Below, piece by piece: positions 1 to 52,566 of a stretch of 64,000 bases of DNA; position 1 is the first letter of the stretch; every line of letters begins with the position of its first letter. The position numbers and the translations under genes are program-made. This DNA is from Holothuria leucospilota (Eukaryota), in NCBI GenBank assembly GCA_029531755.1, contig CM055969.1, positions 23,815,285-23,879,284 on the forward strand, in the 5' to 3' direction. Below the pieces are notes generated by a model that ran no database searches, had not been told where the DNA came from, and worked only from the letters and a program-made list of their open reading frames with translations.

Positions 1-303
1 GGTTTTTCATTCTTCAACTTACGTAGGGAGTAAGTTTGACTTATACTTTCTGCTAAATACTGTTACCATTAACAGATCGGTTTACGCGTCTGCTACTCAA
101 ACGAAGTTCGAATATCACCACGCGACTTTCATTCCGCGTCGCAGAAATCTAAAGCGCAATAGGTTCAGGGCGCGGACGTCAGTGCGACGACGTGAACTGA
201 GGGTTAAAACGCCGCGTCGCCCTGGCCACGTCTTGTAATCTAAAGCTCCCTATTGTTTTCACACAAAATGACGTCAGTGTAAAGTCAATGCATAAGGTCA
301 CGT

Positions 304-552
304 GGGAGGGATTTCAGTCACGTGACTTTAACCAACTAGACGCAATTTTGAAGGGCAAGATCGCTCGTCTTTTTTGTTTTGAAGGGCAACATCGCACGTC
401 TCTTTGGTTTTGACGGGCACGCGTCCATTGTGTCACAGTAGTATCTATGGTTATGTCGTGCGCGTGAGCTGTAAGTTCGCTTACTGCGTGTGTGTTTTGC
501 CCTTCAGTGCCTGGGAATCCATTGCACTTGACGTCACATGAAATCCCTCTAT
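304..552 (+). mobile_element. MITE-Y copy of ~245 bp with TIR TAGAGGGATTTCA...TGAAATCCCTCTA. The interior holds TGACGTCA motifs and the core tgtgacacaatggacg.
   Basis: Ends at 304-320 and 536-552 are inverted. Collinear with 27618-27861. Confidence 0.6.
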
Positions 553-553
553 G

Positions 554-1004
554 GACCTTATGCATTGACATCACACTGACGTCATTTTGGGTGAAAACAA
601 TGCAGCACACGTGCACGGATGCGTAGATTTCGCCGCACGTGTAGTAGACTTACGCGCGTATAGAGGGATTTCATATGACGTCACGCAAGTGGGATTCCCA
701 GGCACTGAAGGGCAAAACACACACGCAGTAAGCGTATTTACAGCACACGCGCACGACATAACTATAGATACTACTGTGACACAATGGACGCCCGCCCTTC
801 AAAACCACCAGAGACGCGCGATCTTGCCCTTCAAAACTGCGTCTAGTTGGTTAAAGTCACGTGACTGAAATCCCTCTATACGAATGGTTGACAAATCAGC
901 TGTCTGCATTTTTTGGTTTAACTTGCAACGATACGCGCTTTTCCGCCATCTTCCTCCAAAAGAGGGCACACTTTCTCCTTTGTGACATCATATGCATAAG
1001 GTCT
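554..1004 (+). mobile_element. MITE-X copy with TIR GACCTTATGCAT...ATGCATAAGGTC. It carries a nested MITE-Y in reverse orientation at 662-880.
   Basis: The intact 220-bp X at 27862-28080 lacks the 662-880 segment. The empty site there reads gcgcgtgtacgattggttgac, whereas here Y is inserted between gcgcgta and tacgaatggttgac. Confidence 0.6.
662..880 (-). mobile_element. MITE-Y copy in reverse orientation, nested inside MITE-X and flanked by TA.
   Basis: TATAGAGGGATTTCA at 662 and TGAAATCCCTCTATA at 866-880. Reverse complement of 304-552. Confidence 0.6.
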
Positions 1005-3922: not shown

Positions 3923-5718
3923 AGTGGGCATGACACGGCCAAAATAACTTTTGTGTATTGCAAGACTGGATACAGTATTGTATAAATTTCATTTCACACA
4001 CAGTTAAAACCTGTGCAATTCGGCGTAAATGAAATCTGAAGAAAAACGTACAAAAATCCAATTTCGAAAATTGCCGCAACAGGTCACCTGACTTTTATGA
4101 CGCAATTGGCGGGAAACACACTGCGTTATATGAGGACGCGTATCTAGATGTGGAACTAATATAACGCTGACGTAAAGTTTTCTTAGCAACTTCATGAAAA
4201 GGCTTACATCACAATACCCGCGAAACAGAGCACAAAGCGTGTTGGGTGCTTCGAGGTACATCGTTGGCCAATGCACGCGTCAATGGCAAGCGAAATGTCC
4301 AATAATTAGAAAAACCAAGTTTATCGGTCGAAAAACCAAGTTTATCGGTTGAAAAACCAGGTTTATCGGTCGAAAAACCAAGTTTATCGGTTGAAAAACC
4401 AGGTTTATCGGTCGAAAAACCAAGTTTATCGGTCGAAAAACCAAGTTTATTGGTCGAAAAACCAAGTTTATCTTTCGATATACCAGATAAATCGAAAAAC
4501 TTGGATTTTCGCCTGAAAATCTAAGTTTTTCGACCGATAAGCCAAGTTAGTTTGAAAATCTAGGTTTTTCAACCGATATACCAAGATTTGGAGATAAACT
4601 TGGTTTTTCGATCGATAAACCTGGTTTTTCGACCGATAAACTTGGTTTTTCGACCGATAATCTTGGTTTTTCGACCGATAATCTTGGTTTTTCGACCGAT
4701 AAACTTGGTTTTTCGACCGATAAACTTGGTTTTTCGATCGATAAACTTGGTTTTTCGATCGATAAACTTGGATTTTCTAATTATTGGACATTCCGTTAAG
4801 AAAAACCAAGTTTTTCTTTGGATTTCCCAGATAAGTCGAAAAACTTGGATTTTCGACTGAAAATCTAAGTTTTTCGACCGATAAGCCAAGTTATTTTGAA
4901 AATCTAGGTTTTTCAACCGATATACCAAGATTTGGAGATAAACTTGGTTTTTCGATCGATAAACCTGGTTTTTCGACCGATAAACTTGGTTTTTCGACCG
5001 ATAAACTTGGTTTTTTGATCGATAAACTTGGTTTTTCGATCGATAAACTTGGTTTTTCTAATTATTGGACATTTCGCTTGCCATACGCGTCCATATGGGC
5101 GCGCGTGTTTAGCTTCCCTACATAAGCCTCAGTAATGTTTTTGTGCACAAAGAAAGCGGTAGGCGCGCTTTACAGAACAGCTATGCCCATGCATGGACCA
5201 GGGAGTTGCTATCTAAATGACAACTTCCTGCATGGACAGTCCATAACATGCGCGCCTATACAGTGGGCTGTTCAGTGACGGTGTGATTACGAATGCCAGG
5301 GAGTTGTCATTTAGCAACTCCCTACGAATGCTAAACAGTCACCGCGCAGCGACGCATCGTTCACAATCTGGTCATTGGTCACACGCGCTGCTCTAGTACC
5401 GTAGCACAGGTGTTTGCAATGCTGTTCCAGCTAAAGCGAGTTAGCGAGCACGCACATGATTGGGTGTGTAGAACGATGGGTGAGCTGCCTAGTACAGGAC
5501 GTAGTGCTACTGACCGTGCAGCCAATGACGTCACGTCTTGAGACGCGCTCACATACGTTTTTTCGCTTTCGGATTTCAGATGGGCTGAGCCTGGCCTGTA
5601 TTTGGGAATTCACATGGGTATATATGGACGTAGTTTAGTCCGGAAAACATTCGTTTTATTTCAAGCTGTACCCAAAGATTATTTACTGAGAAACTTACTT
5701 TGGCCGTGTCATGCCCAC
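3923..5718 (+). mobile_element. Non-autonomous TIR DNA transposon. It has 21-bp perfect TIRs (AGTGGGCATGACACGGCCAAA) and is flanked by TTAA, so it is piggyBac-like. This long copy carries a ~1.35-kb internal insertion (~4230-5575) that includes a foldback satellite.
   Basis: TTAA at 3919-3922 and 5719-5722. The ends at 3923-3945 and 5699-5718 are reverse complements. The inner flanks (3923-4230 and 5575-5718) are collinear with the short copy at 13320-13743. Confidence 0.7.
4270..5075. repeat. Foldback-type element. Its terminal inverted repeats (gcaagcgaaatgtccaataattag...) enclose three blocks of a 21-bp tandem repeat (GAAAAACCAAGTTTATCGGTC). The blocks run 4296-4480 forward, 4598-4790 inverted and 4935-5040 inverted, separated by duplicated spacers.
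   Basis: Direct reading. 4280-4310 is the reverse complement of 5040-5075. There are 9 or more near-identical 21-mers per block. The spacers at 4480-4597 and 4800-4935 are near-identical. The ORF-track ORFs here (4280..4465, 4569..4928, 4588..4860) are 7-aa periodic translations of the repeat. Confidence 0.75.
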
Positions 5719-6394
5719 TTTAACAAAGTGTCAGATGTGATGAAACTTGTAATCTTTATGTTCTTATCTAGATTCAGCACTTGATGACGTCATAGAAACA
5801 ATGAATAATGTTCTTTCAATCGTCTGTGAAACTTCTGAGGTGAAGAAATGGAAATGGGTAAAGGTAAGATTATAAAATTATAGTAATGAAAAACTTAATG
5901 TTTTGCTACCGGTCTGAATACTTAAACAAGATACATCGTGACATTAAACGTGTGAGGCGATACGCCCCCCCCCCCCCACACACACACACACACGAAACAA
6001 GTCTATACGAAGATGTCATTTGAAGTAAAGAAGTACAACGTGAATAACAACTGTCTGAAACACAGTTTGATGTGCTGCATGTGGTCAATATTTTTGCATA
6101 CGCTGAGATAAATCATGGTCACTGAAACTGCAGTCTGTCAAAATGACAACTTGTCACTTTAGATAGAATGAGGTTTCTTAAATAATACCTGATGCAAAAT
6201 CACTTTGTATTTACTTTTATGTTCTCACTCAGATTCAGTAAGTGATGACGTCAAGGCAACACTTGATAATAGAAAACAGAACACTTTTTTATTTCAAACA
6301 ACTTTATTGATCATCCTTATCAACGGGGCACTTTGTTGAAGTTAATTAAACTATACATCGAATCCGTGCATACTTTTGATCAACATTCGTAATA

Positions 6395-6795
6395 GGTCTC
6401 ACCTATCGTTGTGAATATTTTCATGAGGTCTAAACATAAACCATTTTCATCGTAACTTGGTACACAGGGTCTTAATGTAGAACCATATCTTTTCGGCTTT
6501 ATTCAAATTACACTTGCAGTTTTTCTTTATAATCACTATTACAGGAAATTGCTGTACTTTCTGTTTCCAGGTCATTCCTCTTCGACTCGGACCTAGGTCT
6601 CACCTATCGTTGTGAATATTTTCATGAGGTCTAAACATAAACCATTTTCATCGTAACTTGGTACACAGGGTCTTAATGTAGAACCATATCTTTTCGGCTT
6701 TATTCAAATTACACTTGCAGTTTTTCTTTATAATCACTATTACAGGAAATTGCTGTACTTTCTGTTTCCAGGTCATTCCTCTTCGACTCGGACCT
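6395..6795 (+). repeat. Tandem duplication of 2 x 200 bp (6395-6595 and 6596-6795).
   Basis: The two units are near-identical from ggtctcacctatcgttgtg... to ...cctcttcgactcggacct. Confidence 0.85.
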
Positions 6796-7520
6796 AACTG
6801 CTACTAACATAGTGTCTAAACCATATGGCCCTCGAAGACTTATTCAGTGAAATGACTTTGATGACGTCACTGTTGACGATGACATCCTTATTGGCAAGGT
6901 AATATTTGATTGAACGTTTCTCTCTCGTTTAAAAACCTCCATGCTTTGCCTGAAAGGAAATATTTTCATATCTTGAAAAACATGTTTTATGAACATAGAG
7001 TAAAATTTATTTCGCAATAAGATAGTAGGGTATCCTAATTTCAAGAAATAAAATCCTAAGATATTTAAAATTACTGTTTTGTATCTCATGAATAATTTCT
7101 TCATCCAAGCTTTGAAATTTTCAAATGATCCAGCAGCCGTAACTTTTGTAAAGTGTAATATTTTTGAGAAGGAAAGCCGTTGCCAGAGTTTATCGGTGAC
7201 ACTGAATGGTTAAATAGTGAGTAAAACTTTTTTCTGTGGGTTCTATTTCGCTGTAATTTAACCACATTATTTACCTTTAATACAACAGAATGGCTTTCAA
7301 TTAATATGTTCCAGGATCAGCGTGAAAAATCCTGAAATACTGTAATATCTTATTGAAAATTCAAATTGTTATCTTAAATTACTCACATATCTTTTCATCT
7401 CATCAGGACGGACAATCTTGAGACTGCGAGGATATGTTTAAGTACAATAAAATTCATTTGGGCTACAAGTCTTCTCTGGAAAAAGATCTCTCTGAATACA
7501 CGTAAGTGGAAATGCACCGA

Positions 7521-7705
7521 TTTAATGTGACGTCACGCGAGTAGGATTGCCGGGCACTGAAGGGCAACATTCAGTAAGCATATTTACAGCACACGTGCAC
7601 GGCATAACCATAGATACTACTGTGACACAATGGACGTTTGCCCTTCTAAACCAAAGAGAGCGCGATCTTACCCTTCAAAACCAGAGACGCGCGATCACGT
7701 GACGT
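7521..7705 (-). repeat. Partial MITE-Y copy.
   Basis: Shares tgacgtcacgcgagt...ggcactgaagggcaa...ccatagatactactgtgacacaatggacg with 662-880. Confidence 0.5.
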
Positions 7706-8696
7706 CGGTAAAACCCCTGTATCGATGGATTCATAGAAGAGTTTTCTCGGACTTTTGACAGTCAGTAGAATAGGATTATATTACCATTGTATAAAGAATA
7801 CAACCACGAATGACATGTTTTAGACATGCATGCATAGGTATGATGGTTCGAGTGGTTAAGCAGTCTTTGTCAAGATGGCAGGATATTTTTACTAATCACA
7901 CGTTCTAAAAATGAGGGCGCTTGTCAACTGAACTGTATGCTCATGAGTTTCGTCCACATACCCTTTCCCAAAATGCAATCGCAAAGGATTGTGGGAAAAC
8001 AGTTTTGGTACGCGTCGATTTTGTAAATGGCCTTTTACTGTGGCAAAAAACGACCCACACCAAAACTCTGTTCTACAATCGTTTGTAATTACTACGGGTA
8101 TTTGGAAACGGTACTAACACAGTACACACTGAACCCTGAGGAACAAATAGAAGGCATACTCACAGTAGTTTCATCAGAGCCGTATATTTGGTTCTGAGTT
8201 TCAACTGGTTCTATGGTTTTGAATGATACTAGTGGTTAAGATGTATATACAACCTTGCACATTCCACGTATGTGAGACCCCTTAATGTTGTTCTTATTTC
8301 TTTTCATTAGAGAAGATACCAAAGAGGACAGACTGAGATGGGAGAGAGCTTGTCGACTCGGCACATGGCAGACGAAATAAAAACCAAACGGCTGGGGGAT
8401 CAGGCTACACAAGTTTCCAAGGAATAGAAACAAGAGAGACAACAGGAAGAATGTCGCCATTTTGTTACAGATTTAAATTCATTTGTTCCAAATTTCCGAA
8501 TTCGAAAAAAAAACTTGAAATATATTTAACTTTGTCAGTAACGTTTGCATCGTTTATTATATGTTTGATGAATAAATTAATATTGCTTTCGCTCATTGTG
8601 TCTTATTGACTAGTTATATACGACTTATACAGAAGTGATGTTTCCAGAGTTACATAATCACTGCAATATGTAGTGAAACTGGCAATCAGTTCCAAG

Positions 8697-11246: not shown

Positions 11247-13319
11247 TTAGAAAAACACGATTGCGCAATAAAATCACCTTGTTAGCCTTGTGCCAGTCGT
11301 TTCTTATGCTTTGAATGTACTATGTATGCAAAGAATTTTGCAAACGTTTCTGAAGGTAGTGAAAAATATTTGATTAAATAAACGCCGTATCAAACTCACA
11401 TTAAATCTGGCCTACTCCAAACTGCAAGGGCTTGTCTAACATGCACTACAATTCTGCGTATTTGCAAGCAAATGCAGTTCTAGTTAGTTCAAAGCTTTGC
11501 CAGCGATTGCGCAATTTTGCACCTAAGCCAGGTCTTACATGTACGCCCTCACCTCAGCACCAGGGCTTTAGCCAGGATTTGAAAGTAGCCGTGTCTCACT
11601 TGTTACCGATTCACAAGGAACTATTCATCTGGCGCCGTGGGCATCAGCGCGAAGCCGCTCACGGTTGGGGTCCAGAGGGCGAAGCCCACTGGAAGCAACG
11701 GCTTTTTTCACACAATTAAGGCAAAAATCATGTTCACGAAGATGCTAAAACACCTAGATTAACACTTGAATTTTTTAGGCATCCAAACATCAAAAAATGA
11801 TGCAAAATCAAACTTAACTTGGAAGGGTGGACCAAGCCATTTGTTGGCGTCCCAAAAGCCGTTCTGCTCCAATTTGGCCGTCTCAAGACGGCGAGACGCA
11901 TCGCTGGCTAAGGCCTTGCTCAGCACCCTCCCTATTGCAAAGATGCCACTCATACACAGGTGAAAAATGAAGGGTCCGCCGGAGTGTCAATTATCTGTCG
12001 GCACGCCACTTAGTCCTCCTCTTAAAGAGTGTCATGAACTGCTCCCCTAGGGATTTCGCCCAGGCTACTGCCCTGCAGGCTAAAAGTGAAATTCCGTTGA
12101 ATCCTTCAGACTGGTCTCAGTACGTACCTAAATATAGCACTGAACTTTCCAACTGGCCTGTATACGGACTCTTACTAGTGTTTTATCTGAGAAATTTCAA
12201 CACGGAAAACAGAGACTTGCAGACCACAATCCTTACTTATTCTTAGCAAGTCGGGATTTAATAAATGTTTAAACGTAATATCAACAAAATATAGCCCCAT
12301 GTATCCTCGTTGGCGTTGCCAGTAACTTTTGGGAAGTGTACAAGTAGGAAGTATAAAAACGCTGTACGTAGGTATCTGTAGGCGGCAACATTAATTGGGT
12401 TACGACGGAAGCTGTCAATTACCAGCACCAAAAAAGCACAAATCATTTTTTTTTCTTTTTGGCATCGCACACGACACAAATTCTTGGCATTTTGCCTTTC
12501 ATGCCGATTTGCTGATTAGCGTTCTCTGACTTGAGTGGCTATTAAATGTACTGCAGATTTTCCCTCTCGTGGCCCTCGCAATAGCCCCACCAAAGGGGTA
12601 TTTAATTGTCCTCCGTCCTCAGAATGAGTCCTGGTACTCTCCACCAGTGTTGAAAGAATAAAAGCTATATGATCAAAATGTCAAGGTAAACAGTTTTAGA
12701 CCCATTAAAGACAGACACTCATCACCCCAAAGTACACTTTTACTTGGGGAAAGCAAAACTCTCAGTCGGTGATTGCTCTTTGATTGACATCAAATTCAAA
12801 ACATTCAGAGTATCTCACATTACACAACATACACATAGAGTGTTGTGATTACATATTATGGCCTTTTATGCTCACCAGGATAGGCTCAAGCAATAAAGTA
12901 GGTTTGTGTCTGCACAAGGAGGAGATAAAGACAGTTATGGGAAGGGGTAGAAGTGACTTAGTTGGGTGAATTGGATTATTTTGGGAGGAGAAAATTTGCC
13001 CTTTAACTCCCTGTCATAATACCTTCAACTGTTTCTTCTTAGATTGTATATACAAGGTCGTCACGATCTCCCGTTATATTACGTTTTCACAAGGCTGTTC
13101 TGCATTGTGCACGGGTTCAGGGGCGTGCATACGCGTGTGGGGTGTGACACTCGGGGCTTTAAAAATCGAAGGTCTCTAAGTGATTCCTAGCAGTTCCTTA
13201 TAAGGGACATTTCGAGATTTTAGATATTAATCATTTAAAAAGTAGTAAAACGTAGTAAAATGTATTACAAGACGCGATTGCTTCAGCGTCCTTCTTGGGC
13301 TTTCGTTTCAGATGGTTAA

Positions 13320-13743
13320 AGTGGGTATGACACGGCCAAAGTACGTTTCTCAGTAAATATTCTTTGGGTACAGCTTGAAATAAAGCGAATGTTTTCCCGA
13401 CTAAACTACGTCCATAAACACAGTAATACGACCTTGTGAATTCCCAAATTATATGCCAGACTCAGCCCTTTTCATGAAGTCGCTTTGATAACTTTACCAA
13501 GCGTTTCATTAGTTCCACATCTATATGCGCGTCCTTAATAGCGCAGTGATTGTGCGGCCAATTGCGTCATAAAAGTCAGGTGACCTGTTGCGGCATTTTT
13601 CGAAATTGGATTTTGAACGTTTTACTTCAAATTTCATTTATGCCGAATGGTACCGGTTTTAACTGTGTGTGAGATGATATTTATAAAATACTGTATCCAA
13701 TCTTGCAATACACAAAAGTTATTTTGGCGGTTTCATGCCCACT
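13320..13743 (-). mobile_element. Short 424-bp MITE copy of the same TTAA-flanked TIR element, in opposite orientation.
   Basis: 13320-13343 AGTGGGTATGACACGGCCAAAG and 13722-13743 ...TTTCATGCCCACT, flanked by TTAA at 13316-13319 and 13744-13747. The interior is the reverse complement of 3923-4230 joined to 5575-5718. Confidence 0.7.
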
Positions 13744-15722
13744 TTAAGTCATAAATACCTCCAACATGGCAGCTTGAGTGGTATTATTGCTGCAAAACCT
13801 CATGTAATCCCTATCATCATTTGTCTGCCCACTCATTAATTCCCTGTATTATCAACTTGCTCAGCCCTAGCCGTTATTTCTAGTTAGGTTACATTATTTA
13901 AAGAAGCCCGCTGTAAAATTTAAAGTCAAATTTTAAGTTTTCGGTGTGTCTACTGTGTTTCCAGTGTCCTTTGAACCATGGAAGTACTACCGAGGTAGTA
14001 CTTCCATGTTTGAACATAGTTACGTTTCATTGCACACAAGTTTGTTATCATCTTAGGTCAATGTGGCCGTGGTCGTCTCGACTTGAAACAATTGGTTGGA
14101 AACTGGGACGTTAAACCTCATCTAACTAACTGGATCAATGTGAAATGATCGATAATGTGTTAGTTTTACCTATATGTCAGCATATGCTCAGCATCTGCTT
14201 TGGTGCTGACGAATAGTGAGTTTCGCAAGACTGTTTCAGTAATCAGGAAGAACAAAATATTGGAAATTTTCTCCTTTCAACTAGACTTGGCAAAGTCTAC
14301 CATTCAACTTGATGTTTATAAAGGTAGCTTTGGTTGATAATTACCATGCTCCTTAGTTAAAGTATATTAACTGAGTTTGGATATTTTATGTCTTTATTAT
14401 TCAAGTTTGTGTTTCATCATTTGCACATCGCACACTGTACACCCTTCTTCTTTCAAATAGGCCTAACACAGTCCAAGCAGTCAGGAATGCATGAAGGGCT
14501 GACTATGAATCGTACGGATTTTAGCGCCTGGGAAATCACACACAGTTAGGGCTCCAGATTTTTGTACAGGGAATAACTCTCGGGCTTACAGGTATAAAAG
14601 GGTTTTTCAGGGATGCTGGTGGGGTTCAACCGGCGCAGACCCATCTATTTTTTGCTGTCGGCGTTTGATACATCTAAATTTTCTAATTTCCAAGCTTTCT
14701 GTTCTCATGTCTTTATTCTTCGTTATTATTGTTGCTGAAAACGTTGGAAATTTCATTGGCCTAATTTAGAATTGTAAGGCCACTATAACCTGGGGCATCC
14801 CATATGAGGGTATCTAAATCTCCAAACGTGAGCGGAGGACTCATGCCTTTCGGATGCAAGTTCGGTGCTCTTAAGTGAGGGACTTGTACATCTCCTGTCT
14901 CCAAGCTCTGTATCCGCCCTTGCCAAGTAATGGCATTTAAGTTGGGAGTGGGGTATTTTAGGACATCTTGGGTCATGGTTGTGTGTCTGAGATTCCTACT
15001 GGGTCATGGTCCAAAAGTTAAACTACGGCAGATGTGAAACACTACTAAACTGTCTTTTAAATGTCATTTTTTGGAACGCTTGGCAAGCACCCACCTCAGC
15101 TATGCTACTTTTCTCATTATAACTTCCTTTAGGGCAGCCTGAAAGCACTTTGGAGGCATCAAATGCGCCCAGCAAAAATAGATGGGTTCGCTCTAAAATC
15201 CTATGGAACCTAACATCGTTCATCGCACAAACCCACATGCCCTCGTATCATCAAATCAACTAGCTGTTAGTCCGAGGTATTCTATTATTAAGAAAAAATG
15301 TCAAAAGTTTGATTGTTGTAGCCTGTTAAGTCCGATTTCAATGTAATTTGAAGATAAACACATGTTTCATTCTAATCCCAACAATTTTGCTAATGCCTCT
15401 GAGCTTCCGGAGGCTTTGCTCCCTGGGACCTGGACAGCACACACTCGGAGGAGGGTTCTCGCTCTTGTGGCGTCTTTGGTACTATTTATCATGATGTTCA
15501 GTTAAGTGCCACTCCTCATCACGTTTACCCCTTATATTTGAATATAGTAGAAATGAAATCATAAAGCAAACCCCACCTGCTTTCGCTTTAGGGCCACTGA
15601 CGTTTTGGACCTGCGACCTGCCGATAAGGGGAGTCGGTGTCAAAAAAGCGATCGCCAAAAATCAGTCCGCCTCCTTTTGAAAGTGTTTTTGCATGTACGC
15701 TCCTGAGAAGTGGCAACGCAAC

Positions 15723-15725
15723 TAA

Positions 15726-15766
<41 letters not shown>

Positions 15767-15878
15767 CTATATATATATAGGCTATATATATATATATATA
15801 AATATATATCTATATATCTATTTATAACTATATATATATATATATATCTATATATCTATTTCAATATATCTTTATCTT

Positions 15879-15958
<80 letters not shown>
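15723..15958. repeat. Compound (TA)n/(TATC)n microsatellite.
   Basis: Direct reading. Confidence 0.9.
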
Positions 15959-15961
<3 letters not shown>

Positions 15962-16117
15962 TTGGTGCTGTTTTTCCCTTTGCCGATAGTTGACTCCCAC
16001 CATTTTCCCTTTCAATCATACTAATATTTTTTGGTGTGGTCCGTGAATCCGTTGCTGGATCCTACTGGCATATTTCGAGAATATCGTTGGTTTCCGGCTT
16101 CTAGATTCAAGATATCA

Positions 16118-16225
<108 letters not shown>

Positions 16226-16631
16226 ACGGTTGTGCAGGTACCGACAGTAGAAAGCTGTACGAATAACAGAGTTAGTCATTAAGTTGCACTCCCATGTCAA
16301 CGGACTTAATAAGGACACATAATTTTTATCGCATTATTCGATCGATAGGTAAAGCTTCATTGCCTCCGTCAAGTTCTATTAGCTGACTGAGTGTTATTTC
16401 TGAAGAAGATCACAGCAGGGAAGTGATAATATCACCTCCCTGATCACAGGGTGATCGAAACGTCATTACATTGCGAACATATGTTTTCTATTACCTGTTG
16501 GAATAGCGCTATATTTTTCTTATCATAATATATATATATATATATTGCAAAAGATATCCACGTATGCTCCATAAATAATATACGCGATGATAAATAGTGA
16601 GTTACACAGGGGTGACATAATAACACCATTA

Positions 16632-16668
<37 letters not shown>

Positions 16669-16746
16669 GTATATATATATACAGTTATATACACGCATAT
16701 AACTGTCTCTTACTCTTATAATGTCACCCCTGTGTACCTCACTATA

Positions 16747-16750
<4 letters not shown>

Positions 16751-16841
<91 letters not shown>
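16751..16841. repeat. (AT)n microsatellite interrupting the left arm of the PLE palindrome. Shorter (AT)n tracts lie at 16526-16545 and 16637-16680.
   Basis: Direct reading. Confidence 0.9.
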
Positions 16842-16844
<3 letters not shown>

Positions 16845-17004
16845 AAATAAATAATAATAATAAGTAGAACACACCACAAAGATGACAATACGAGAGCACA
16901 GATACGGTAACAGAATAGCGTATATTTCGGACACTCCTGTGTCCTTCTTCAGCGCAAAATGTGAAGTGAAGTTTAATTTACAAATAACAGACACAGAAAT
17001 GAGG

Positions 17005-17697
17005 TTAAACCCCTTGACGAGGGTGATAAATCACAGAGGGGAAATCGCTTAGGATGCCCAGGTCCTTGTTTAGGCCACGGGTGTGTGTGGACAGTTTTAT
17101 TACCCACTTGCTTTCGGATTTGAGTCTTTGAGTGACAGACGGGTAATTAGAACCGAGCAGAATACATCTTAAATTAGATAAAGAGTGGTTAGGTTCACTA
17201 CTGAAATGTTTTGATACAGGATAGCTTATTGATTTATCCTGCACAGTTTTCTTGTGGTTATTAAACCTCAGCCTAAATTTGGTGCCGGTCTGACCGACAT
17301 AGTTGCCTTTGTCACACAAATTGCAGCATAATAAATATACTACATTAGGCGTGTCACAATCCAGGGGAGGGGGACGGATGTTGCAAACAGTGCCGGGAGG
17401 AGTAAATGTTTCGTCCGTGATAATGAACCGACACACTTGACACCTAGGCTTGCCACACTTTTTATTGCCTATGTTCCCAACAGTAAGAAGCCTGGAGGAT
17501 GTAAGGAGAGATTTGAGGTTGGGGGGTTGCCGTCTCGCAGTTAAAGGGGGATCATCAAAAAGTTCGGAAATGGACTTGTCTGTCCGAAGAATACTGAAAT
17601 CTGAACGTATACATTTATGTAGGCCCTCAGTTTTAGGGGAATAGTCAAAGACAAGTGGGATACGTGAATTTTCGACTTTAGGTTTGTAACATAACAA
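17005..17697 (-). mobile_element. ORF of the Penelope-like element left arm. It encodes the C-terminal portion with CX2C...C Zn-finger-like motifs and a GIY-YIG endonuclease domain.
   Basis: The protein ...CGKPRCQVCRF...CNIRPPPLDCDTPNVVYLLCCNLCDKGNYVGQTGTKFRLRFNNHKKTV...SKHF...KSESKWVIKLSTHTRGLN shows the GIY (VVYLL), YIG (YVGQT), Arg (RLRFNNH), Glu and Asn motifs. These are typical of PLE GIY-YIG endonucleases. The N-terminus is truncated at the palindrome centre. Confidence 0.7.
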
Positions 17698-17769
17698 TTT
17701 ATCCCTGCGGTAAACGGAAGCTTTACTAATTCCCTAATTAGTAAAGCTTCCGTTTACCGCAGGGATAAA

Positions 17770-18462
17770 TTGTTATGTTACAAACCTAAAGTCGAAAATT
17801 CACGTATCCCACTTGTCTTTGACTATTCCCCTAAAACTGAGGGCCTACATAAATGTATACGTTCAGATTTCAGTATTCTTCGGACAGACAATTCCATTTC
17901 CGAACTTTTTGATGATCCCCCTTTAACTGCGAGACGGCAACCCCCCAACCTCAAATCTCTCCTTACATCCTCCAGGCTTCTTACTGTTGGGAACATAGGC
18001 AATAAAAAGTGTGGCAAGCCTAGGTGTCAAGTGTGTCGGTTCATTATCACGGACGAAACATTTACTCCTCCCGGCACTGTTTGCAACATCCGTCCCCCTC
18101 CCCTGGATTGTGACACGCCTAATGTAGTATATTTATTATGCTGCAATTTGTGTGACAAAGGCAACTATGTCGGTCAGACCGGCACCAAATTTAGGCTGAG
18201 GTTTAATAACCACAAGAAAACTGTGCAGGATAAATCAATAAGCTATCCTGTATCAAAACATTTCAGTAGTGAACCTAACCACTCTTTATCTAATTTAAGA
18301 TGTATTCTGCTCGGTTCTAATTACCCGTCTGTCACTCAAAGACTCAAATCCGAAAGCAAGTGGGTAATAAAACTGTCCACACACACCCGTGGCCTAAACA
18401 AGGACCTGGGCATCCTAAGCGATTTCCCCTCTGTGATTTATCACCCTCGTCAAGGGGTTTAA
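17770..18462 (+). mobile_element. ORF of the Penelope-like element right arm, a mirror copy with the GIY-YIG EN domain.
   Basis: Reverse-complement duplicate of 17005..17697. It differs by one codon (RTDNSISELF vs RTDKSISELF). Confidence 0.7.

Positions 18463-18648: not shown

Positions 18649-18654
<6 letters not shown>

Positions 18655-18711
<57 letters not shown>
18655..18711. repeat. (AT)n microsatellite at the right edge of the PLE palindrome.
   Basis: Direct reading. Confidence 0.9.
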
Positions 18712-18714
<3 letters not shown>

Positions 18715-19654: not shown

Positions 19655-20400
19655 CCAAAAGGGGACTTCAGGAGGTTTGTTGATACATACCCTTAGACAA
19701 AAAAGGCTCCTCTTTCACCTAACCAAAAATATTAAAAATGTTTGAAGCCATATAATCGGGTTCGAAAATATCCCAAAGACAACACCATTTTTGCATCTAA
19801 GTAACCTTCAAGTAACCAAAATTTCTCAAAAGACCCCTTCCCTTAGACCTATCCCCTAGAACAGCCCTCTTTTACCCAACCAAAAATTAGAATTCACGAC
19901 GTTATGAACATTTTCCAGCCATATATCAGTCAAAACTGTCCCGAAGACGGCAGCATTTTGCATCTTAGCAACCTTAAAGTAACCAAAATTTCTCACAGGA
20001 GAGGGAACACCCCTCCCTTTAGACTTCTCCCCTAGGACCGCCCTCTTTCCCCCAACCAAAAATTAGAATTCACAGTTATGAACATTTTTCAGCCATATAT
20101 ATCAGTCAAAAAATAAACCAAAGACCGCACCATTTTGCATCTTAGCACCCTTAAATTAGCAAAAATTTCTCAAAGGGAGGGGAATACCCTTCCCCTTAGA
20201 CCTCTCCCCTAAGAAAGCCCTCTTTCCCTCAACCAAAAATTAGAATTCACAAAGTTATGAACATTTTCCAGTCATATAGTCAACAAATTACCCAAAGAAC
20301 GCACCATTTTGCATCTTAGCAACCTTAAATTAGCAAAAATTTCTCAGAGGAAGGGGACGACCCCTCCCCTTAGACCCCTCCCCCAGGACGGCGATCACTC
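19655..20400 (+). repeat. Tandem satellite of ~4.3 units with a ~177-178-bp period. The unit contains aaccaaaaattagaattcac...ccattttgcatcttagcaaccttaaa...aaaatttctcaaag...ccctcccc ttagacc.
   Basis: Motif recurrence at ~19711, 19876, 20053 and 20231. A divergent 2-unit array with the same period lies at 9850-10230. Confidence 0.75.
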
Positions 20401-25337: not shown

Positions 25338-27617
25338 CTTATTGCAGGATACTCTTCAATGAAATGCTATAAAAAAGGAAATAATCTTTAAAACTGAACA
25401 TTTTTCATGAATTTGTGCGAATTGTGGCTATTTTTTAAGTTTCTAATACTCTTCACATGATATCGGCATGGCATTTGTACATCCAGAGACCGGTAAGTTT
25501 TGATATAATGTTTGTTTTGATTACTGGATAAGGTTGATTTAATTCAGCAAATGATATTCTTACAACGTATTTGCATGCACCTATTATGAAACAAGGAAAG
25601 GGAATATGGATGACGACATGGATAGGTCCGACTCCTTGTTAAGAAGCAAAAACAAATGCTGGGTTACAATGGGTAAAGAATCACATGGATGGATACCATC
25701 GAGTTGACAGGTTAGTGATGAAATGCTGCATGCACAACGTATTGCAGTGCCGTCCAAAGTGATGATGACAATGGACGATGACGTAACTGCATGTATTTTA
25801 TAATTATGCATAAACCTTACATCAAGCGAACTTGAACCAGGAGCCAGTCCAAACCGCTTTTCTCGCCAGAATACCCTGGTATTCACAAGTTACTGTATGA
25901 CCATAAGACATGTGCAATGAGCTCATGAACCCAAGTCAATGTGCACAAATCTAGGAAATTTCATAAGCACAAGTAAAGAAAATGCTCACTGAAAATTTAA
26001 AGCACTTTGGAATCGAAAATTAAGGGGGTATGACCAAGATCTTTACACGAAAATCGTAATTCACCTGGTCATATAGTTTTGAAGCAAATCAGGCGTTACA
26101 TCTCCGGGACCATGGAGTAAAATACCTTTGGCGCCCGCTTAATATCATAAAGCTCGTTCGTTTACTCAAATAATATGTTTTTAAATAGTAAACCAAACGT
26201 GAGTCTATATTGAACTTATTTGATTTCCTATGTGGTAAAAGGACGTCGAATGCAATATAGGCCTACAAGACACCACTCTTTACACAACATGAGAATATAC
26301 AGTGACGAATGCAATTGTTAATAAACTCATTTAAACTCTAGAATTTTATAGACGGTGAATTGTAATTGTTTACAGCTAATAATGGCATGCAATGCCCTTA
26401 AATAAGAGTTTCTGTAGGCCGTTTTGTCTTGAGAACGCTTTTATTTATTCATCGAGGGGGTAATGCGTCTCTGCATTGTATTACTTTCAAACAATAGAGC
26501 CAACACAATTGACGAGTTACAGCTTTTCCGTATCCACACAACGAAGGTTAATGGCAAGTCAGACATAATTGCAAACTTTCAAATCAAAACAGAGATTAGC
26601 AAACGCAGCAGGTGTGATTGTGTATCTCTTTCCAACGTAAATATTCTGTGTTAGACTCCTGCAGCCAATAAAGTGTGGCGTCCGCTGAAAGTGGATTTCT
26701 TCCCACTACAAATGGGGAAAATTTTTACATATTTCCACAGAAATCATGAACGGTGGAAAGTGCTGCTCATGTTAGGGTCAACGTTGCAGTTAGAAATGGC
26801 CCACATTCGTCCTGAGAAAAAAATCACTCCCGGCAAAGCTGAAATATGGCAGGTTTCTCGAAGCAGAACATATGTACCAACAAGGCTTTGCTATGCTTTG
26901 TTTAAGATGGCCATGACGTCTCTCCTCATATCAGTAAGATACCCATCATTTCACTTTCTTACAAGAATTTCCTAAAGCGACCGTCATAATACATTAAGGT
27001 GGACCTAAAGTCTAGAATTACGAGAATATATATTTTAGAGATTGGAAAATGAATTCCATTCATCCAAATCCCATCTTCATAGCTTATTCATTTGCTGAGA
27101 TATAAAATGTTGAAATTTATTCACTTAATTTGAAAAAGTCGATTGCGCAATAATTTGTGATGCCCTTCTTGTACAACTCACATTACCTACTTTTGTTTCC
27201 TAATGAAATTAAAATGTTTATATGACCTTGAAACATTAACCGTTCCTTTGCTTAGCATTTTGTAGGGAAAGGCCTTTTATAGTCAAGTCACCCTATAACT
27301 GTGAGACAGTGATCACATTTTGGCACAAGCTGCAGTGGCTTTCGAAAAAAACAAAGAAAAACAAAGGCTGTAATTTGAGTAGTACAAGAATGACATCACA
27401 AATTATTGCGCAATCTACCATTTCAAACTGAGTGAATAAGCTTCAACATTTTATATCTCAGCTCAGGAATGTCCTCTGAAGATGGGAGTTGGACCATCTG
27501 GATGCATTTTTCAAGCTTTGTAACATATATTTTTGAAATTTTAGACTTTAGGTACACTTTAAATGGATGACCTGAACCGTTTAAAGAATGTTCTTACCAA
27601 ATTGCCGCCTATAGAGG

Positions 27618-28385
27618 GATTTCAGTCACGTGACTTTAACCAACTAGACGCAATTTTGAAGGGCAAGATCGCGCATCTTTTTTGTTTTGAAGGGCAAGAT
27701 CGCACGTCTCTTTGGTTTTGACGGGCACGCGTCCATTGTGTCACAGTAGTATCTATGGTTATGCCGTGCGCGTGAGCTGTAAATACGCTTACTGAGTGTG
27801 TGTTTTGCCCTTCAGTGCCTGGGAATACATTGCGCGTGACGTCACATGAAATCCCTCTATAGACCTTATGCATTGACGTCACACTGATGTAATTTTGGAG
27901 GAAAACAATGAAGCACACGTGCACGATCGGCGTATTTCGCACGCACGTGTAATAGACTTACGCGCGTGTACGATTGGTTGACAAATCAGCTGTCTGCATT
28001 TGTTGGTGTAACTTGCAGTGATGCCCCATTTCCCTCCAAACGAGGGAGCAGTTTCTGCGTGTGACATCATATGTATAGGGCAAACACACACACACGCAGT
28101 AAGCTTATTTTATATAGCACACGCGCACGGCATAACCATAGATACTACTGTGACACAATGGACGAGGCGTCTCTTTGGTTTTGAAGGGCAAGATCGCGCG
28201 TCAATGGCACGCCAGATAAATCCTAAGCTTAGGATTTCTCTGGGGCACGCGTCCATTGTGTCACAGTAGTATCTATGGTTATGCCGTGTGCTTGTGCTGT
28301 AAATGAGCTTACTGCGCGTGTGGTTTGCCCTTCAGTGCTTGGGACCCCCACTCGCGTGACGTCACATGAAATCCCTCCATGGATT
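27618..28385. mobile_element. Second MITE-Y/X cluster. It contains Y(+) at 27618-27861, intact X at 27862-28080, Y(-) partial at 28085-28200 and Y(+) partial at 28255-28385.
   Basis: Direct sequence similarity to 304-1004. ORF-track ORFs 27622..27942, 28018..28269 and 28229..28420 are repeat translations that share the GFPGTEGQNTHAVS...TIDTTVTQWT pseudo-peptide. Confidence 0.6.
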
Positions 28386-29322
28386 GTTTCCAAATTGCAC
28401 TCCGGCCTTGTTAGTTGCATCTAGACATGATAAGCTCGGGAGGTCCCAGGCTTTGGAGAAAAAGAGTTTCCCATTTGTCAGGCAGGGCAATGTCGTCAAA
28501 TTAGAGCACCAAGGGTATACCTTTTGAGGAGTCCGAAGGCTACCCCGGGCAAGTTTTGAAAAGAATAAATTAAACGGGATTTCCGAGGTTCTCGGAGGGG
28601 TCTTACAACCAGAACCATGAAAATGCCGATTATTTGCAGCAGTTATGTAAAACAATACAGTAACCACTTCCAAGCGATACTTCATGTCTGCAAAAAAATA
28701 GCTAGGCTTGGTAGAAAAGGTGGGGGGTTACTTCTTAGTTGGAGACCATCCTGTTGGTAAGGCCCAAATTCTTGTTTTTGAGAGAATGTAGTTGTGCATC
28801 ACCTGGTAGGGGTGTGCTTTCATTGTTGTCTTACGTCTTACATGTCAAAAAGGGACTTACTGTGTAGAGGGGTGGGACAAAATCAGCTGAAGGGGGCTTA
28901 AAGAAGGTGACTGGGTTCAGCCCAATCTCCTAGTAGGTAGGTTGGAAAAGGCCCGTCAGGCTCAAACCTATATCAGAGTTTGCTCTTCGAGCGATCAAAA
29001 TACCGTACAAAACTGGTTATAAATGCTTCACATGTTTGATAGGGTCACTGTTTTCCTCCTCTGTAATATAGGGCAGATAACACTTACAGCTCGTGACATG
29101 ATAACACCCTTCTCAGAGAAGCAGAAGTTTATTGAAGAAGCTCTATATTTTTCTGCACACTTTTATGACTCCACAAAGGAGCTCACTGATTTAGAACTAG
29201 GGCAGCTTTCCATGCCAAAACCTAGTAGTTTTTCGGGGGGTGGGGGTGGGTGGATATCCAAACATAAGAAATTTTGTCGGGGTATCTTGAAGTCAAGACA
29301 CCTTGCCCAGTGTTAGTCTATA

Positions 29323-41442: not shown

Positions 41443-42100
41443 ATAGCCTACAGCACAGGCAGTCCTAGCGTTATATAGTAAATACTACATATATATAATA
41501 ATGGAAAGGTAGCGCACTTCACGGCCTTTCGGTACCAACTTCGCCTAACTGAATTACGATTTTTATGCCTTAATATCCACCTTACCTCTTTTCAATACAT
41601 ACGGATGTTCAAATCGCGTGTTCCAATCACTTGAGTAGTGTCATGATTCATTTGGATCAAAAAATGTCCTCCAAAAAGCAACATTTCTCCGCGAAAATTT
41701 GGTTTCCACACTATCGCGTTCAGTGAAAAACAGAATCCGGGCCTCCCATTGGATAGTTCCACCCTCGTCATGACGTCATGACAAGGGGCCGTATACCATT
41801 CAATGGGAAAGCTGACGACTGAACGCGATAGTGTGGAAACCCAATTTTCGCGGAGAAATGTTTCTTTTTGGAAGACATTTTTTGATCCAAATGAATCATG
41901 ACACTACTCAAGTGATTGGAAGACGCGATTTGAACATCCGTATGTATTGAAAAGAGGTAAGGTGGATATTAAGGCATAAAAATTGTAATTCAGTTAGGCG
42001 AAGTTGGTACCGAAAGGCCGTGAAGTGCGCTACCTTTCCATTATTATATATATGTAGTATTTACTATATAACGCTAGGACTGCCTGTGGCCTACAGTATG
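41443..42100. repeat. Long imperfect palindrome (~320-bp arms) centred near 41770 (gtcatgacgtcatgac), in UBXN4 intron 1. Probably a foldback element or hairpin-forming MITE.
   Basis: 41455-41760 is the reverse complement of 41780-42090. For example, ggtagcgcacttcacggcctttcggtaccaacttcgcc pairs with ggcgaagttggtaccgaaaggccgtgaagtgcgctacc. Confidence 0.75.
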
Positions 42101-50051: not shown

Positions 50052-51239
50052 GTAAAGTTTGGTTTTTGTGCAAAGAGAAATCTTTACATTTCTAATGGTA
50101 GATATATGTAAATAAGGGCTCACAGTAGTATTCCAAGAACAAGAGCAAGTTTGAACAATTATTTGATGCCTTTACTCCATGTTAGGATTTATTTGAATAA
50201 CTGACACATTTTGTCTACAGGTAATTGCACATAGTAAAATTTAAATGTAAACCCTGCAGTATACACATTTATCAGAAGCTAAAGAAGATTTCATTGTGAC
50301 ATTGTCACCCAATCATTTTGATAATTGACAAATTGTTGCTGTGTAATTAATGTATGTGAACAGCAACATTATGAATTATGCAGAAAAATGTGTGATCCAA
50401 AATTATGAATACATGGAAGAAAAAACAAAAAAATGAACAGAATTTCCAGGGGATTGTAAGCATACGGTAGTGTTTAGGTGCCTCATGAGTCAACTCTAAA
50501 GTTGTCTTTTTTCATATACATTTTGGAGTACTTATGAGTGGGTGGAGCTTAAGGGGCCTGACAAGTTAAACTAGTAATTTCCATAGAGTAGTGAGAGTCA
50601 GTTGCACAGGCATGTGGATTCCATCCTGCCTGGAAGGTTGGGTGGGGAGTGGGGGATGGTGGAGAGGCAGCTTCTGCTTGAAAATTATAAAAATTACCTG
50701 TAGTTTAAGGATAATTCATCTTGACATTTGAAGACATAGGCAACATTGGTAGGACACAAAAGATATTAACTGTACCTCTGATCACCTGTATGTTAGACCA
50801 TCATGATATTAGAAAAATCAATGTAAAGGCAATGTTAAATCCAACTGTAAATCAGTATTCTTTGCTCCTACAGAATTAATAGGAAAAGCAATTAAAATGT
50901 GAAATATCACTCTTTCTCTCAATATCACAATCTGTATAGCATAGCTCTCTGTTTTCGAGCATGAAAAATATGGTGTGGCAGCTATTACTGCTGTACAATA
51001 TCCTTGATCTTGCCATTCTGACCTGGGTTGCAGGTCTTCATTCCCTGTGGCCCTTCATAGTTCTGTAGTACCAGTCAGTATCCCCATTGGTGCAGATATG
51101 ACTTTTTTCTTTGTTGTTTGCAAAAGTTCTATTCATGACACTTCAATGAATGAAATGATAATTATTAAAGTGCTACAAAAATTGAAAAATGATTTCCGTT
51201 TGTCAAATTCCCCATCTTAACAGGACATTCAGTGCTAAG

Positions 51240-51500
51240 GTATAAGTGTTGAAGTTTGTCTCCTCAATAGACCTTATGCATTCATGTCACACAGAGTCAT
51301 TTTGGCGGCAAAACGGTGAAGCACATGGAACACACGAAGTAGACTTTGCATGCACACGTAGAAGATTACGAGTGTGTCCCACCAGTGCACTGATCAGCTG
51401 TCTGCAGTTGTTGGTGTAAGATGCAATGATATATGCTTGCCTCCATGGGGGCGGGGGGCACACTTTTTGTTCGTGACATCATGTGCATAAGATCTGTTAA
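51240..51500 (+). repeat. Divergent MITE-X-related copy (accttatgcattcatgtcacac...gacatcatgtgcataag) in UBXN4 intron 5.
   Basis: Alignable with 554-1004 and 27862-28080 at the ends and at the core ctgatcagctgtctgcagttgttggtgtaa. Confidence 0.45.
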
Positions 51501-52566
51501 AAGTAGAATGCAAAATAGTTTGTCATGTCACTCTTTTGCTTACTTGAATTACTGACTTTGTTATTCTTTGCCATTCCTAAAGCCACTGCACCCTTTTCTG
51601 AAATGTGGTCAGTGTCTTTTACAGGGTGACTTGACTATGCATTCCGTCTTCTTGTAGCATGGTGTGCAAGAAAACAGTAACATATCTGAGATCATGGAAA
51701 TTTTTATATTTCAAAAAGGAAACAAAGCAGGTACTGTGAGTTGTATGAAGAGAACATTACATACAAATCGCTGTGCAATTCCCTATTGTAAATGAAGTGG
51801 ATAAAATTCAAGATAAATCAAAAAAACTGAATAAACTATGAAGATGGAAGTTGGATGTGCTAGATTCATTTTCCAACCTTTGAACAAGATATTCTTGTAA
51901 TTTCAGACTTTACTGTAGTTAAACTTAAAATGGATCAGAATTCTGTGGCTATTAATTCTGGTACCAGAGTTACATTTGGGCCATGAGCACATCATTGTTT
52001 TATTACTGTGTGTAGCTCAAAAGAATAAAATCAGAGTACAAGACACTTTTTTCCTCCTTTTTATTCAAGTATTGTATATAAACATTGACAAATACTGCAC
52101 AGTATTTCTAGGAGCACAAAACTTTTTTCGAGAAAAAAGCAAAAAACATAGCAGGTGAAAAAGTGAATGGAATACATAAATTAAGTGAATTCATAAGTTA
52201 CCAATACATATCAATATAATCATAAAAAGCACCACATAATCGTAATAACTGATCTGCTTTTTTGATCTAATTGGTTTTCTTTTCTTTTTGCATTAAACTT
52301 TTCCACATTGATTTCAAACTTTAACTTGTACAGAAATTCTTGAACTGAAAGTTGTACCTCCTTGGATTTACTTTGATAAATATGGTTCTTCATGTGTAAA
52401 ATTAAAAAGTTCAATTGGTGTTTTTTCCCTGATTAAAACCAAAAATACATCTTGTTTGGAAAAGAATTGTTTTTTGGAGAACCGACTCTTCTACATCGAA
52501 AGTAAAGCCTTAACCATAGAGAGTACAAGACACGTAAATTGCATTCTACATTCATTTCTACAATAG

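Follow-up and report, generated by a model that had tools for sequence, protein, structure and literature searches.

The closest described counterparts of the elements reported here are the Stowaway-type MITEs. Our family Y resembles them in its length (~220-250 bp), short terminal inverted repeats, TA duplication, lack of coding sequence, multiple copies, and tendency to form hairpins. The TA-CAG... ends of an older Y subfamily are also Stowaway-like, whereas the consensus tips of plant Stowaway elements are unrelated to the tips of either family in this study. Y further differs from Stowaway-type MITEs in that its central core is unusually conserved and its subterminal regions carry GAAGGGCAA repeats. 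In the Tc1/mariner superfamily, the transposase binds inside the inverted repeat. In bacteria, insertion sequences such as IS30 place new insertions beside the terminal repeats of resident related elements, leaving the ends abutted. The locus described here recalls IS30 in that elements appear to have inserted next to resident terminal repeats; this is an analogy only, since IS30 is prokaryotic and differs in both transposase and mechanism.

Nested and adjacent MITE multimers that arose by independent insertions have been described in rice and maize (Jiang and Wessler 2001, as summarized in PMC5172404) and in mosquitoes (PMC5172404). These multimers share two features with the present locus: MITEs lie within or next to other MITEs, and paralogous copies serve as empty sites that define target duplications. 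The present case differs in that it comes from an echinoderm, involves very few copies, and includes at least two, possibly four, tip-to-tip contacts exactly at the TA that flanks one of the two families (X), which suggests a sharper preference than general clustering. Repeats make up ~50% of the genomes of Holothuria glaberrima and Holothuria leucospilota, and in H. glaberrima these are predominantly DNA transposons, which average 321 bp in length (PMC13228809, PMC10120082). Given so many repeats and so many short DNA transposons, pile-ups of MITEs are to be expected in these animals. The region analyzed here, a real pile-up of an ordinary kind, consists of non-autonomous class II (cut-and-paste) transposons nested in and beside one another.

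Results

We analyzed a 64,000-nucleotide stretch of H. leucospilota DNA (the window) in which a sequence-only reading had noticed two MITE families, Y and X, at two loci. Copies were mapped by reading positions 1-1500 and 27300-28700, by BLAST with the elements, by tip patterns, and by an nhmmer profile search of the window (Table 1). Similarities among the X and Y copies in the window were supported by BLAST and nhmmer E-values of 1e-22 to 1e-114. Five of the mapped X and Y features (Y4, Y5a, Y5b, X3, and X') were absent from the earlier reader's list.

Table 1. Coordinates of family Y, family X, and repeat Z features in the window
Feature	Position	Strand	Description
X'	252..299	-	Terminal ~48 nt of an X-type element; tip GACCTTATGCAT at 288-299 faces the left end of Y1
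X'/Y1 junction	300..303		Remodelled (4-6 nt); expected TATA replaced, giving GGTCACGTGG
Y1	304..551	+	Full-length, 248 bp; left tip degenerate (GGGAGGGATTTCA), right tip exact
X1, left part	554..660	+	Tip GACCTTATGCAT at 554-565; TGACGTCA at 577-584; TA target of Y-ins at 659-660
Y-ins	661..878	-	218 bp, inside X1; exact tips; TA at 659-660 and 879-880
X1, right part	879..1003	+	Duplicated target TA at 879-880; right tip at 992-1003, then TA
Y4	7516..7722	-	Solo, diverged; subfamily with TA-CAGGGG tip; no X adjacent
Z'	26994..27562		Third repeat family; inverted arms of ~190 bp; 47 bp upstream of Y2
Y2	27612..27859	+	Full-length; both tips exact; TA at 27610-27611 and 27860-27861
X2	27862..28078	+	Uninterrupted; last 2 bp of right tip gone
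Y5a	28059..28165	-	Partial Y, model positions 89-207
Y5b	28167..28379	+	Y without left tip, model positions 33-218
X3	51270..51494	+	Solo; flanks TA/TG; nested within repeat Z

Family Y elements are about 220-250 bp long (181-248 bp across the copies) and end in YAGAGGGRTTTCA (also written TAGAGGGATTTCA), with terminal inverted repeats of 13 exact nt that extend imperfectly to ~24 nt. Exact Y tips occur five times in the window, where only ~2 matches would be expected by chance even with up to two mismatches allowed. We counted six copies or fragments in the window and seven copies outside it. The outside copies were reached through the fact that Y is open in one frame: a protein-database search for spurious ORFs led to the Logan contigs that carry them. 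These seven copies lie on six independent contigs (L001, L002/L003 counted once, L004, L005, two copies in L006, and L007), and exact and degenerate Y-core patterns found no match in metagenome or viral collections. Within the window, Y1 and Y2 are 95% identical. Internally, Y1 repeats a 31-bp unit in tandem (346-419), and its TGACGTCA lies at 529-536; Y-ins carries one 31-bp unit fewer than Y1. The two ends of the diverged copy Y4 differ, one carrying CGACGTCA and the other TGACGTCA. Y5a and Y5b form a rearranged pair, a foldback with arms of ~88 nt, in which Y5b contains an insert of ~45 nt that includes a 20-bp palindrome, and an AGG microhomology marks the point where Y5a is fused to the truncated X2 right tip. 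A deletion spanning a former X-TA-Y junction could have produced this join.

Family X elements are ~217-232 bp long, with GACCTTATGCAT tips and terminal inverted repeats of 12 exact nt extending to ~23 nt. The window contains three copies and one tip fragment; exact X tips number five, and ~5 chance matches would be expected when up to two mismatches are allowed. X1 and X2 are ~83-88% alike. The fragment X' matched X positions 1-48 by nhmmer (E 1.6e-9) and is 94% identical to the left end of X1, with a body, possibly to position ~78, that is unlike X1-X3. X3 lies in a copy of repeat Z (about 51100-51912) that is paralogous to Z'. Its left flank, CCTCAATA, was considered as a relic Y tip and rejected, the flank being Z sequence. 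We also rejected the idea that X and Y are one related family: local alignment gave z of at most 2.2, and shared sequence is limited to a brief TGACGTCAC block and 16 nt resembling CAGCACACGTGCACGG.

No coding capacity was found in either family. No Pfam domain was found in translations of Y, X, or the retroelement ORFs. The only protein-database hits to Y and X were short ORFs without annotation, each a translation of a Y or X copy, and a search with the X translation returned only one NCBI protein. Both families are thus short, multi-copy, bounded by terminal inverted repeats, flanked by target-site duplications (clean in Y, approximate in X), and free of transposase coding sequence, as is usual for MITEs.

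The expectation of a TA-type target was borne out for family Y, in which TA was present on both sides in all six intact copies whose flanks could be read cleanly (Y2 and Y-ins in the window; L001, L002, L004, and L005 on outside contigs). The intact copies in the window are all embedded in TATA...TATA, a context that fits two readings, duplication of TA next to a TAG tip or duplication of TATA. Copies with a different tip separate the two: L004 reads TA-CAGAGGGG...CCTTTG-TA and has a CAG tip in the pattern TA-CAG...CTG-TA, and L002 and Y4 also have TA-CAG tips. Because these three copies have CAG instead of TAG tips, the TA cannot belong to the element itself; the tip is then YAG, with a duplication of 2 bp. 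A 4-bp TATA duplication, suggested by the 4-nt TGTA in X2/X3, was accordingly rejected on the evidence of the CAG-tip copies, L004 especially. The flanks of L007 are consistent with TA, its right end being ~2 nt short, and the older Y copy in L006 has decayed flanks (AA/CA). For family X the target is less certain, since its flanks are only roughly TA (X1, TG/TA; X2, TA on the left only; X3, TA/TG). Comparison of X3 with both Z arms was compatible with a 2-bp duplication.

The flanks also bear on the superfamily. An 8-bp hAT duplication, the 3-bp TWA of PIF/Harbinger, and the TTAA of piggyBac were each rejected: the flanks of Y2, Y-ins, L001, L002, L004, and L005 share only TA. These features point to a Tc1/mariner-pogo, Stowaway-like affiliation for Y. 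No autonomous element combining these tips with a transposase was found within the window, so this putative assignment is drawn entirely from the TA duplication and the shape of the tips.

We confirmed that a Y copy is nested in reverse orientation within X1 with TA on either side, and that X is uninterrupted at the second locus, where X2 reads GCGCGTGTACGATT at about 27961-27974. At the insertion point, X2 has ACGCGCGTGTACGATTGG, X3 has ACGAGTGTGTCCCACC, and X1 has ACGCGCG-TA-[Y]-TA-CGAATGG. The earlier description of a built-in empty site needs qualification: X2 and X3 are indeed uninterrupted, but they are paralogous copies and not the allelic site. The match is also imperfect by 2 nt, X2/X3 having GCG-TGTA/TGTC-C where X1 has GCG-TA[Y]TA-C, without one GT of GTGT. 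Considered by itself, this paralogous comparison would favor a gap of 4 nt over one of 2 nt. Under the 2-bp duplication established above, X1 must have lost one GT of GTGT by a small slippage, before or after the insertion.

Y stands directly before X at both loci (304-1003 and 27612-28080), as first noticed. There are two additional tip contacts, one between the tip of X' and the left end of Y1 and one between Y5a and the truncated right tip of X2. The remodelled junction GGTCACGTGG between X' and Y1 resembles nearby GTCACGTGAC (317-326) and may be filler DNA from a repair event. On the outside contig L001, the flank of Y has a 27-nt resemblance to an X right tip, but nhmmer gave E = 3, and this contact was not counted. 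The window contains 4728 TA sites, of which at most 8 flank X tips, and the probability that at least two of five Y insertions would fall at such sites is ~3e-5. Chance adjacency of Y and X is very unlikely.

We counted 14 occurrences of the palindrome TGACGTCA in the window, where 0.67 would be expected, a 20-fold enrichment. The statement that both families are full of it holds in part: the motif is present in both, which together account for 8 of the 14 occurrences, but "full" is an overstatement because each Y carries a single site and each X one or two. Three other occurrences (5785, 6246, and 6862) lie in apparent repeated coding exons as GAT-GAC-GTC, and the one at 41771 is the center of another palindromic repeat. 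Counted from the tips, the motif lies at positions 16-23 at the right end of Y and at positions 13-20 at the left end of X; X1 has another at 24-31. The left ends of Y have an alternative at positions of about 14-23, namely CGACGTCA (positions 15-22) in the older subfamily and GTCACGTGAC in the subfamily of Y1, Y2, and Y-ins. Across 10 Y copies, the best-conserved 17-nt windows were the central core, TCCATTGTGTCACAGTA...GTATCTATGGTTATGCCGTG, and TGACGTCACATGAAATC, with majority fractions of 0.93-0.94 versus 0.825 overall. Given its fixed distance of 13-23 nt from the tips, TGACGTCA is best read as part of an extended inverted repeat. The ACGT-core palindromes form the inner portion of the terminal inverted repeat and are most likely a transposase-binding part of the ends; their family-level, position-fixed conservation looks like that of a cis-acting transposition signal.

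Some of these regions are predicted to fold strongly. The segment 250-1004 forms a stem of ~220 bp (-446 kcal/mol, z -23), and 28040-28400, which comprises Y5a and Y5b, folds at -117 kcal/mol (z -17). The single element Y2 reached a z of -3.7, and the X fold was no more stable than those of shuffled sequences. No Rfam family reached its gathering threshold anywhere in the window. A sub-threshold match to RF04133 (MIR2646) covers 250-603 with 37 bits (E 4e-6) against a gathering threshold of 245, and is explained by the very long hairpins that oppositely oriented Y copies make.

Discussion

The adjacency of Y and X can be read in two ways. We favor repeated independent insertion of Y at TA sites beside X-type tips (TA-GACCTTAT-like) as the most likely cause. 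The other reading, that Y-X is a fused composite MITE which amplified through the left tip of Y and the right tip of X so that the two loci are two copies of it, corresponds to the question of a fixed composite unit raised by the sequence-only reading. It draws on real features of the loci: order, orientation, and junction (CCCTCTA-TA/TG-GACCTT) are the same at both, a single BLAST alignment runs over Y and the left part of X with 93% identity over 360 bp, and TGA[CT]GTCAC is found in both families at a similar offset from the tip, such that one transposase might recognize both ends. Divergence between the loci was measured by global alignment of Y1-X1 (minus Y-ins) with Y2-X2. The Y parts show 12 mismatches over 248 nt (4.8%) and no indels, whereas the X parts differ by 25 mismatches in 216 nt (11.6%) and by 7 indel events. 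Whole X is therefore 2.4 times more diverged than Y, a difference that was significant by Fisher test for substitutions (P = 0.009) and with indel events included (P = 0.0004). For the left part of X (8 mismatches in 106), the difference from Y in substitutions is not significant (P = 0.32), a point in favor of a composite. The unequal divergence is good but not decisive evidence against a copied Y-X unit, as it comes from one pair of loci. Other observations run the same way. The left tip of Y and the right tip of X are not mutual inverted repeats, an intact TA pair bounding the supposed unit on the outside is missing from both loci, and X3, Y4, and all seven outside Y copies are solo. None of those seven clearly abuts X, although they may come from species without X. 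The contact of X' with Y1, that of Y5a with X2, and the insertion of Y-ins into X1 require separate insertions in any case. Self-BLAST found no similarity between the two loci beyond the elements; their flanks are unrelated, which excludes segmental duplication. Taken together, these observations show that Y and X are not bound into a fixed unit, and make a mobile Y-X composite unlikely. We infer that Y1 and Y2 belong to a young subfamily and that the X copies are older, and this age difference is the reason that repeated insertion, and not copying of a Y-X unit, most likely produced the adjacency.

Two further readings would give these sequences a role in the host, and both fare poorly. TGACGTCA is the textbook CRE palindrome, the same 8 bp that is bound by CREB/ATF bZIP factors, and its 20-fold enrichment and its retention in 8 of 10 Y copies despite the CpG would be expected if MITEs had dispersed exapted cAMP-response sites that rewire host gene regulation. 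Against this, the motif keeps one fixed place within the inverted repeats of X and Y alike, and some Y left ends have a different ACGT-core palindrome, GTCACGTGAC, in its place. Fixed position and substitution by GTCACGTGAC thus argue for a structural role in the element and not for CRE selection at individual loci. Conservation is at the level of the family and is common also to the central core, which lacks a CRE. Nowhere in the window is X or Y found at a recognizable promoter, and the three non-MITE sites named above are probably coding. We regard the regulatory reading as very unlikely. Least probable of all, to the point that we give it hardly any weight, is that the clusters are hairpin-RNA loci, siRNA or miRNA-like, operating through the long stems of opposed Y copies. 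The folds at both clusters are very long and stable, the MIR2646 match spans part of one of them, and Y occurs on Logan contigs beside coding sequence, so that some copies may be transcribed. Yet long stems follow automatically from inverted copies of a transposable element, and MIR2646 is a plant family whose match here, far below threshold, reflects only a long hairpin.

We therefore return to insertion of Y beside resident X elements. The account as a whole (X first, Y into TA, tip-adjacent insertion, and palindromes as transposase-binding ends) is, in our judgment, probably correct. X-type elements would have been resident first, with X1 and X' standing tip to tip before the arrival of Y1. 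Y would then have been mobilized in trans by a transposase encoded elsewhere, integrating at TA and duplicating it. One Y would have integrated inside X1, giving Y-ins, and at least two others (Y1 and Y2) at a TA directly flanking an X tip. A third tip-adjacent Y was probably placed at the right tip of X2 and would correspond to Y5, rearranged later.

A stronger and more doubtful proposal is that X-type tips are homing sites, the TA flanking GACCTTATGCAT being a strongly preferred target both for Y and for X itself. One possible cause would be a single transposase that recognizes the shared TGA[CT]GTCAC block and integrates beside ends that are already bound. If this were true, it would provide a eukaryotic counterpart of the inverted-repeat targeting known in bacteria and would explain how MITE nests grow. 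In a weaker, hypothetical variant, the ends of X and Y might also seed candidate CREB/ATF sites across the holothurian genome.

In a literature search, the tip and core sequences returned only irrelevant matches; X and Y are apparently undescribed as two holothurian MITE families, whereas nested MITEs themselves are well known. The main value of this work is in annotation, as it defines the tips, the TA target, the subfamilies, and the conserved blocks of both families. The feature most worth genome-wide interest is the apparent insertion preference exactly beside X-type tips. Should that preference hold across the genome, it would offer a tidy animal example of target choice guided by resident transposon ends, and a supply of paralogous empty sites by which bursts of MITE activity in echinoderms could be dated.

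Among the hypothetical proteins annotated in H. leucospilota, HOLleu_17191 and HOLleu_26127 are translated copies of these families. Elsewhere in the window, at 17005-18462, we observed an inverted pair of ORFs of 230 aa each that are 99% identical over part of their length to an H. leucospilota protein, a match that places the window in a Holothuria genome. Further homologues of these ORFs were found in H. leucospilota and in a crinoid, and are named reverse-transcriptase or GIY-YIG by their sources.

Conserved core of Y and gene-associated copies

Across the MITE family Y, conservation was greater in the central core than at the tips. This core, CGTCCATTGTGTCACAGTAGTATCTATGGTTATG (for example, at positions 27732 to 27771), was identical in all six window copies in the Y alignment and almost invariant in the copies outside the window. 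Conservation of the core above the tips is uncommon in MITEs. A search of Rfam gave no match for the Y central core.

Translated copies of Y and of the second MITE family, X, made up most of two annotated H. leucospilota "hypothetical proteins," P0033 (HOLleu_17191) and P0036 (HOLleu_26127); both probably represent either spurious gene models or MITEs that became exonised. In a further database protein, P0038, a dynein-heavy-chain-like C-terminal peptide ran on into a Y-derived ORF, and in an outside Logan contig (L004, 417 to 818) Y lay ∼30 to 100 bp away from an SRCR-domain ORF. Taken together, the fusion ORF and the L004 copy indicate that Y copies occur near or within transcribed genes.

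Insertion sites and other repeats in the window

The solo X copy X3 was nested in the copy of a third repeat family, Z, at ∼51.1 to 51.9 kb (see table below). The Z copy at 27.0 to 27.6 kb represents the paralogous empty site, providing a second built-in empty-site comparison. In L005, another outside contig bearing Y, the right flank of the element (∼505 to 517, reverse complement) read TA followed by GACTTATCAG. This flank resembled the X tip, TA followed by GACCTTATGCAT, across the first 8 to 9 nt, with nothing X-like further on; it may hint at a target preference at the sequence level, for TA-GAC(C)TTAT and not for X itself.

The CRE-like palindrome TGACGTCA was also present in a hairpin element unrelated to X and Y, the ∼183-bp repeat with TCATGACGTCATGA at its center. 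Three of the 14 TGACGTCA sites in the window fell in exon-like segments at 5700 to 6900. In these recurring segments, GT sites resembling splice donors come after GATGACGTCA (Asp-Asp-Val); the segments could represent host-gene exons that were duplicated.

Selected repeats and ORFs in the window
Feature	Position	Strand	Description
Z repeat copy	26994-27562		Inverted arms ∼190 bp
Z repeat copy	∼51100-51912		Inverted arms ∼190 bp
Palindromic repeat, ∼183 bp	41680-41862		Inverted arms ∼45 nt; central 14-bp palindrome TCATGACGTCATGA
230-aa ORF	17005-17697	-	Near-identical partner at 17770-18462
230-aa ORF	17770-18462	+	Head to head with ORF at 17005-17697
Tandem duplication, 201-bp unit	6393-6796		100% identical
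Tandem repeat, 177-bp unit	19765-20383		3.6 copies, ∼82% identity

A repeat that is unbroken at 13315 to 13748 has a paralogue split at 4202/5582 by 1.38 kb (4203 to 5581, versus 13467/13468). This insert contained a 21-bp tandem array (4309 to 5058) and a CpG-rich stretch bearing CCAATGACGTCACG (5526); neither inverted tips nor a clear duplication was seen at its junction.

Long AT microsatellites lay on either side of the 230-aa ORF pair (15726 to 16853 and 18652 to 18712). Pfam returned no match for the pair, and homologues in H. leucospilota and a crinoid carry the names reverse-transcriptase or GIY-YIG. The two ORFs probably belong to a Penelope-like retroelement present as an inverted pair. 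The duplication of the 201-bp unit either arose very recently or is an artefact of the assembly.
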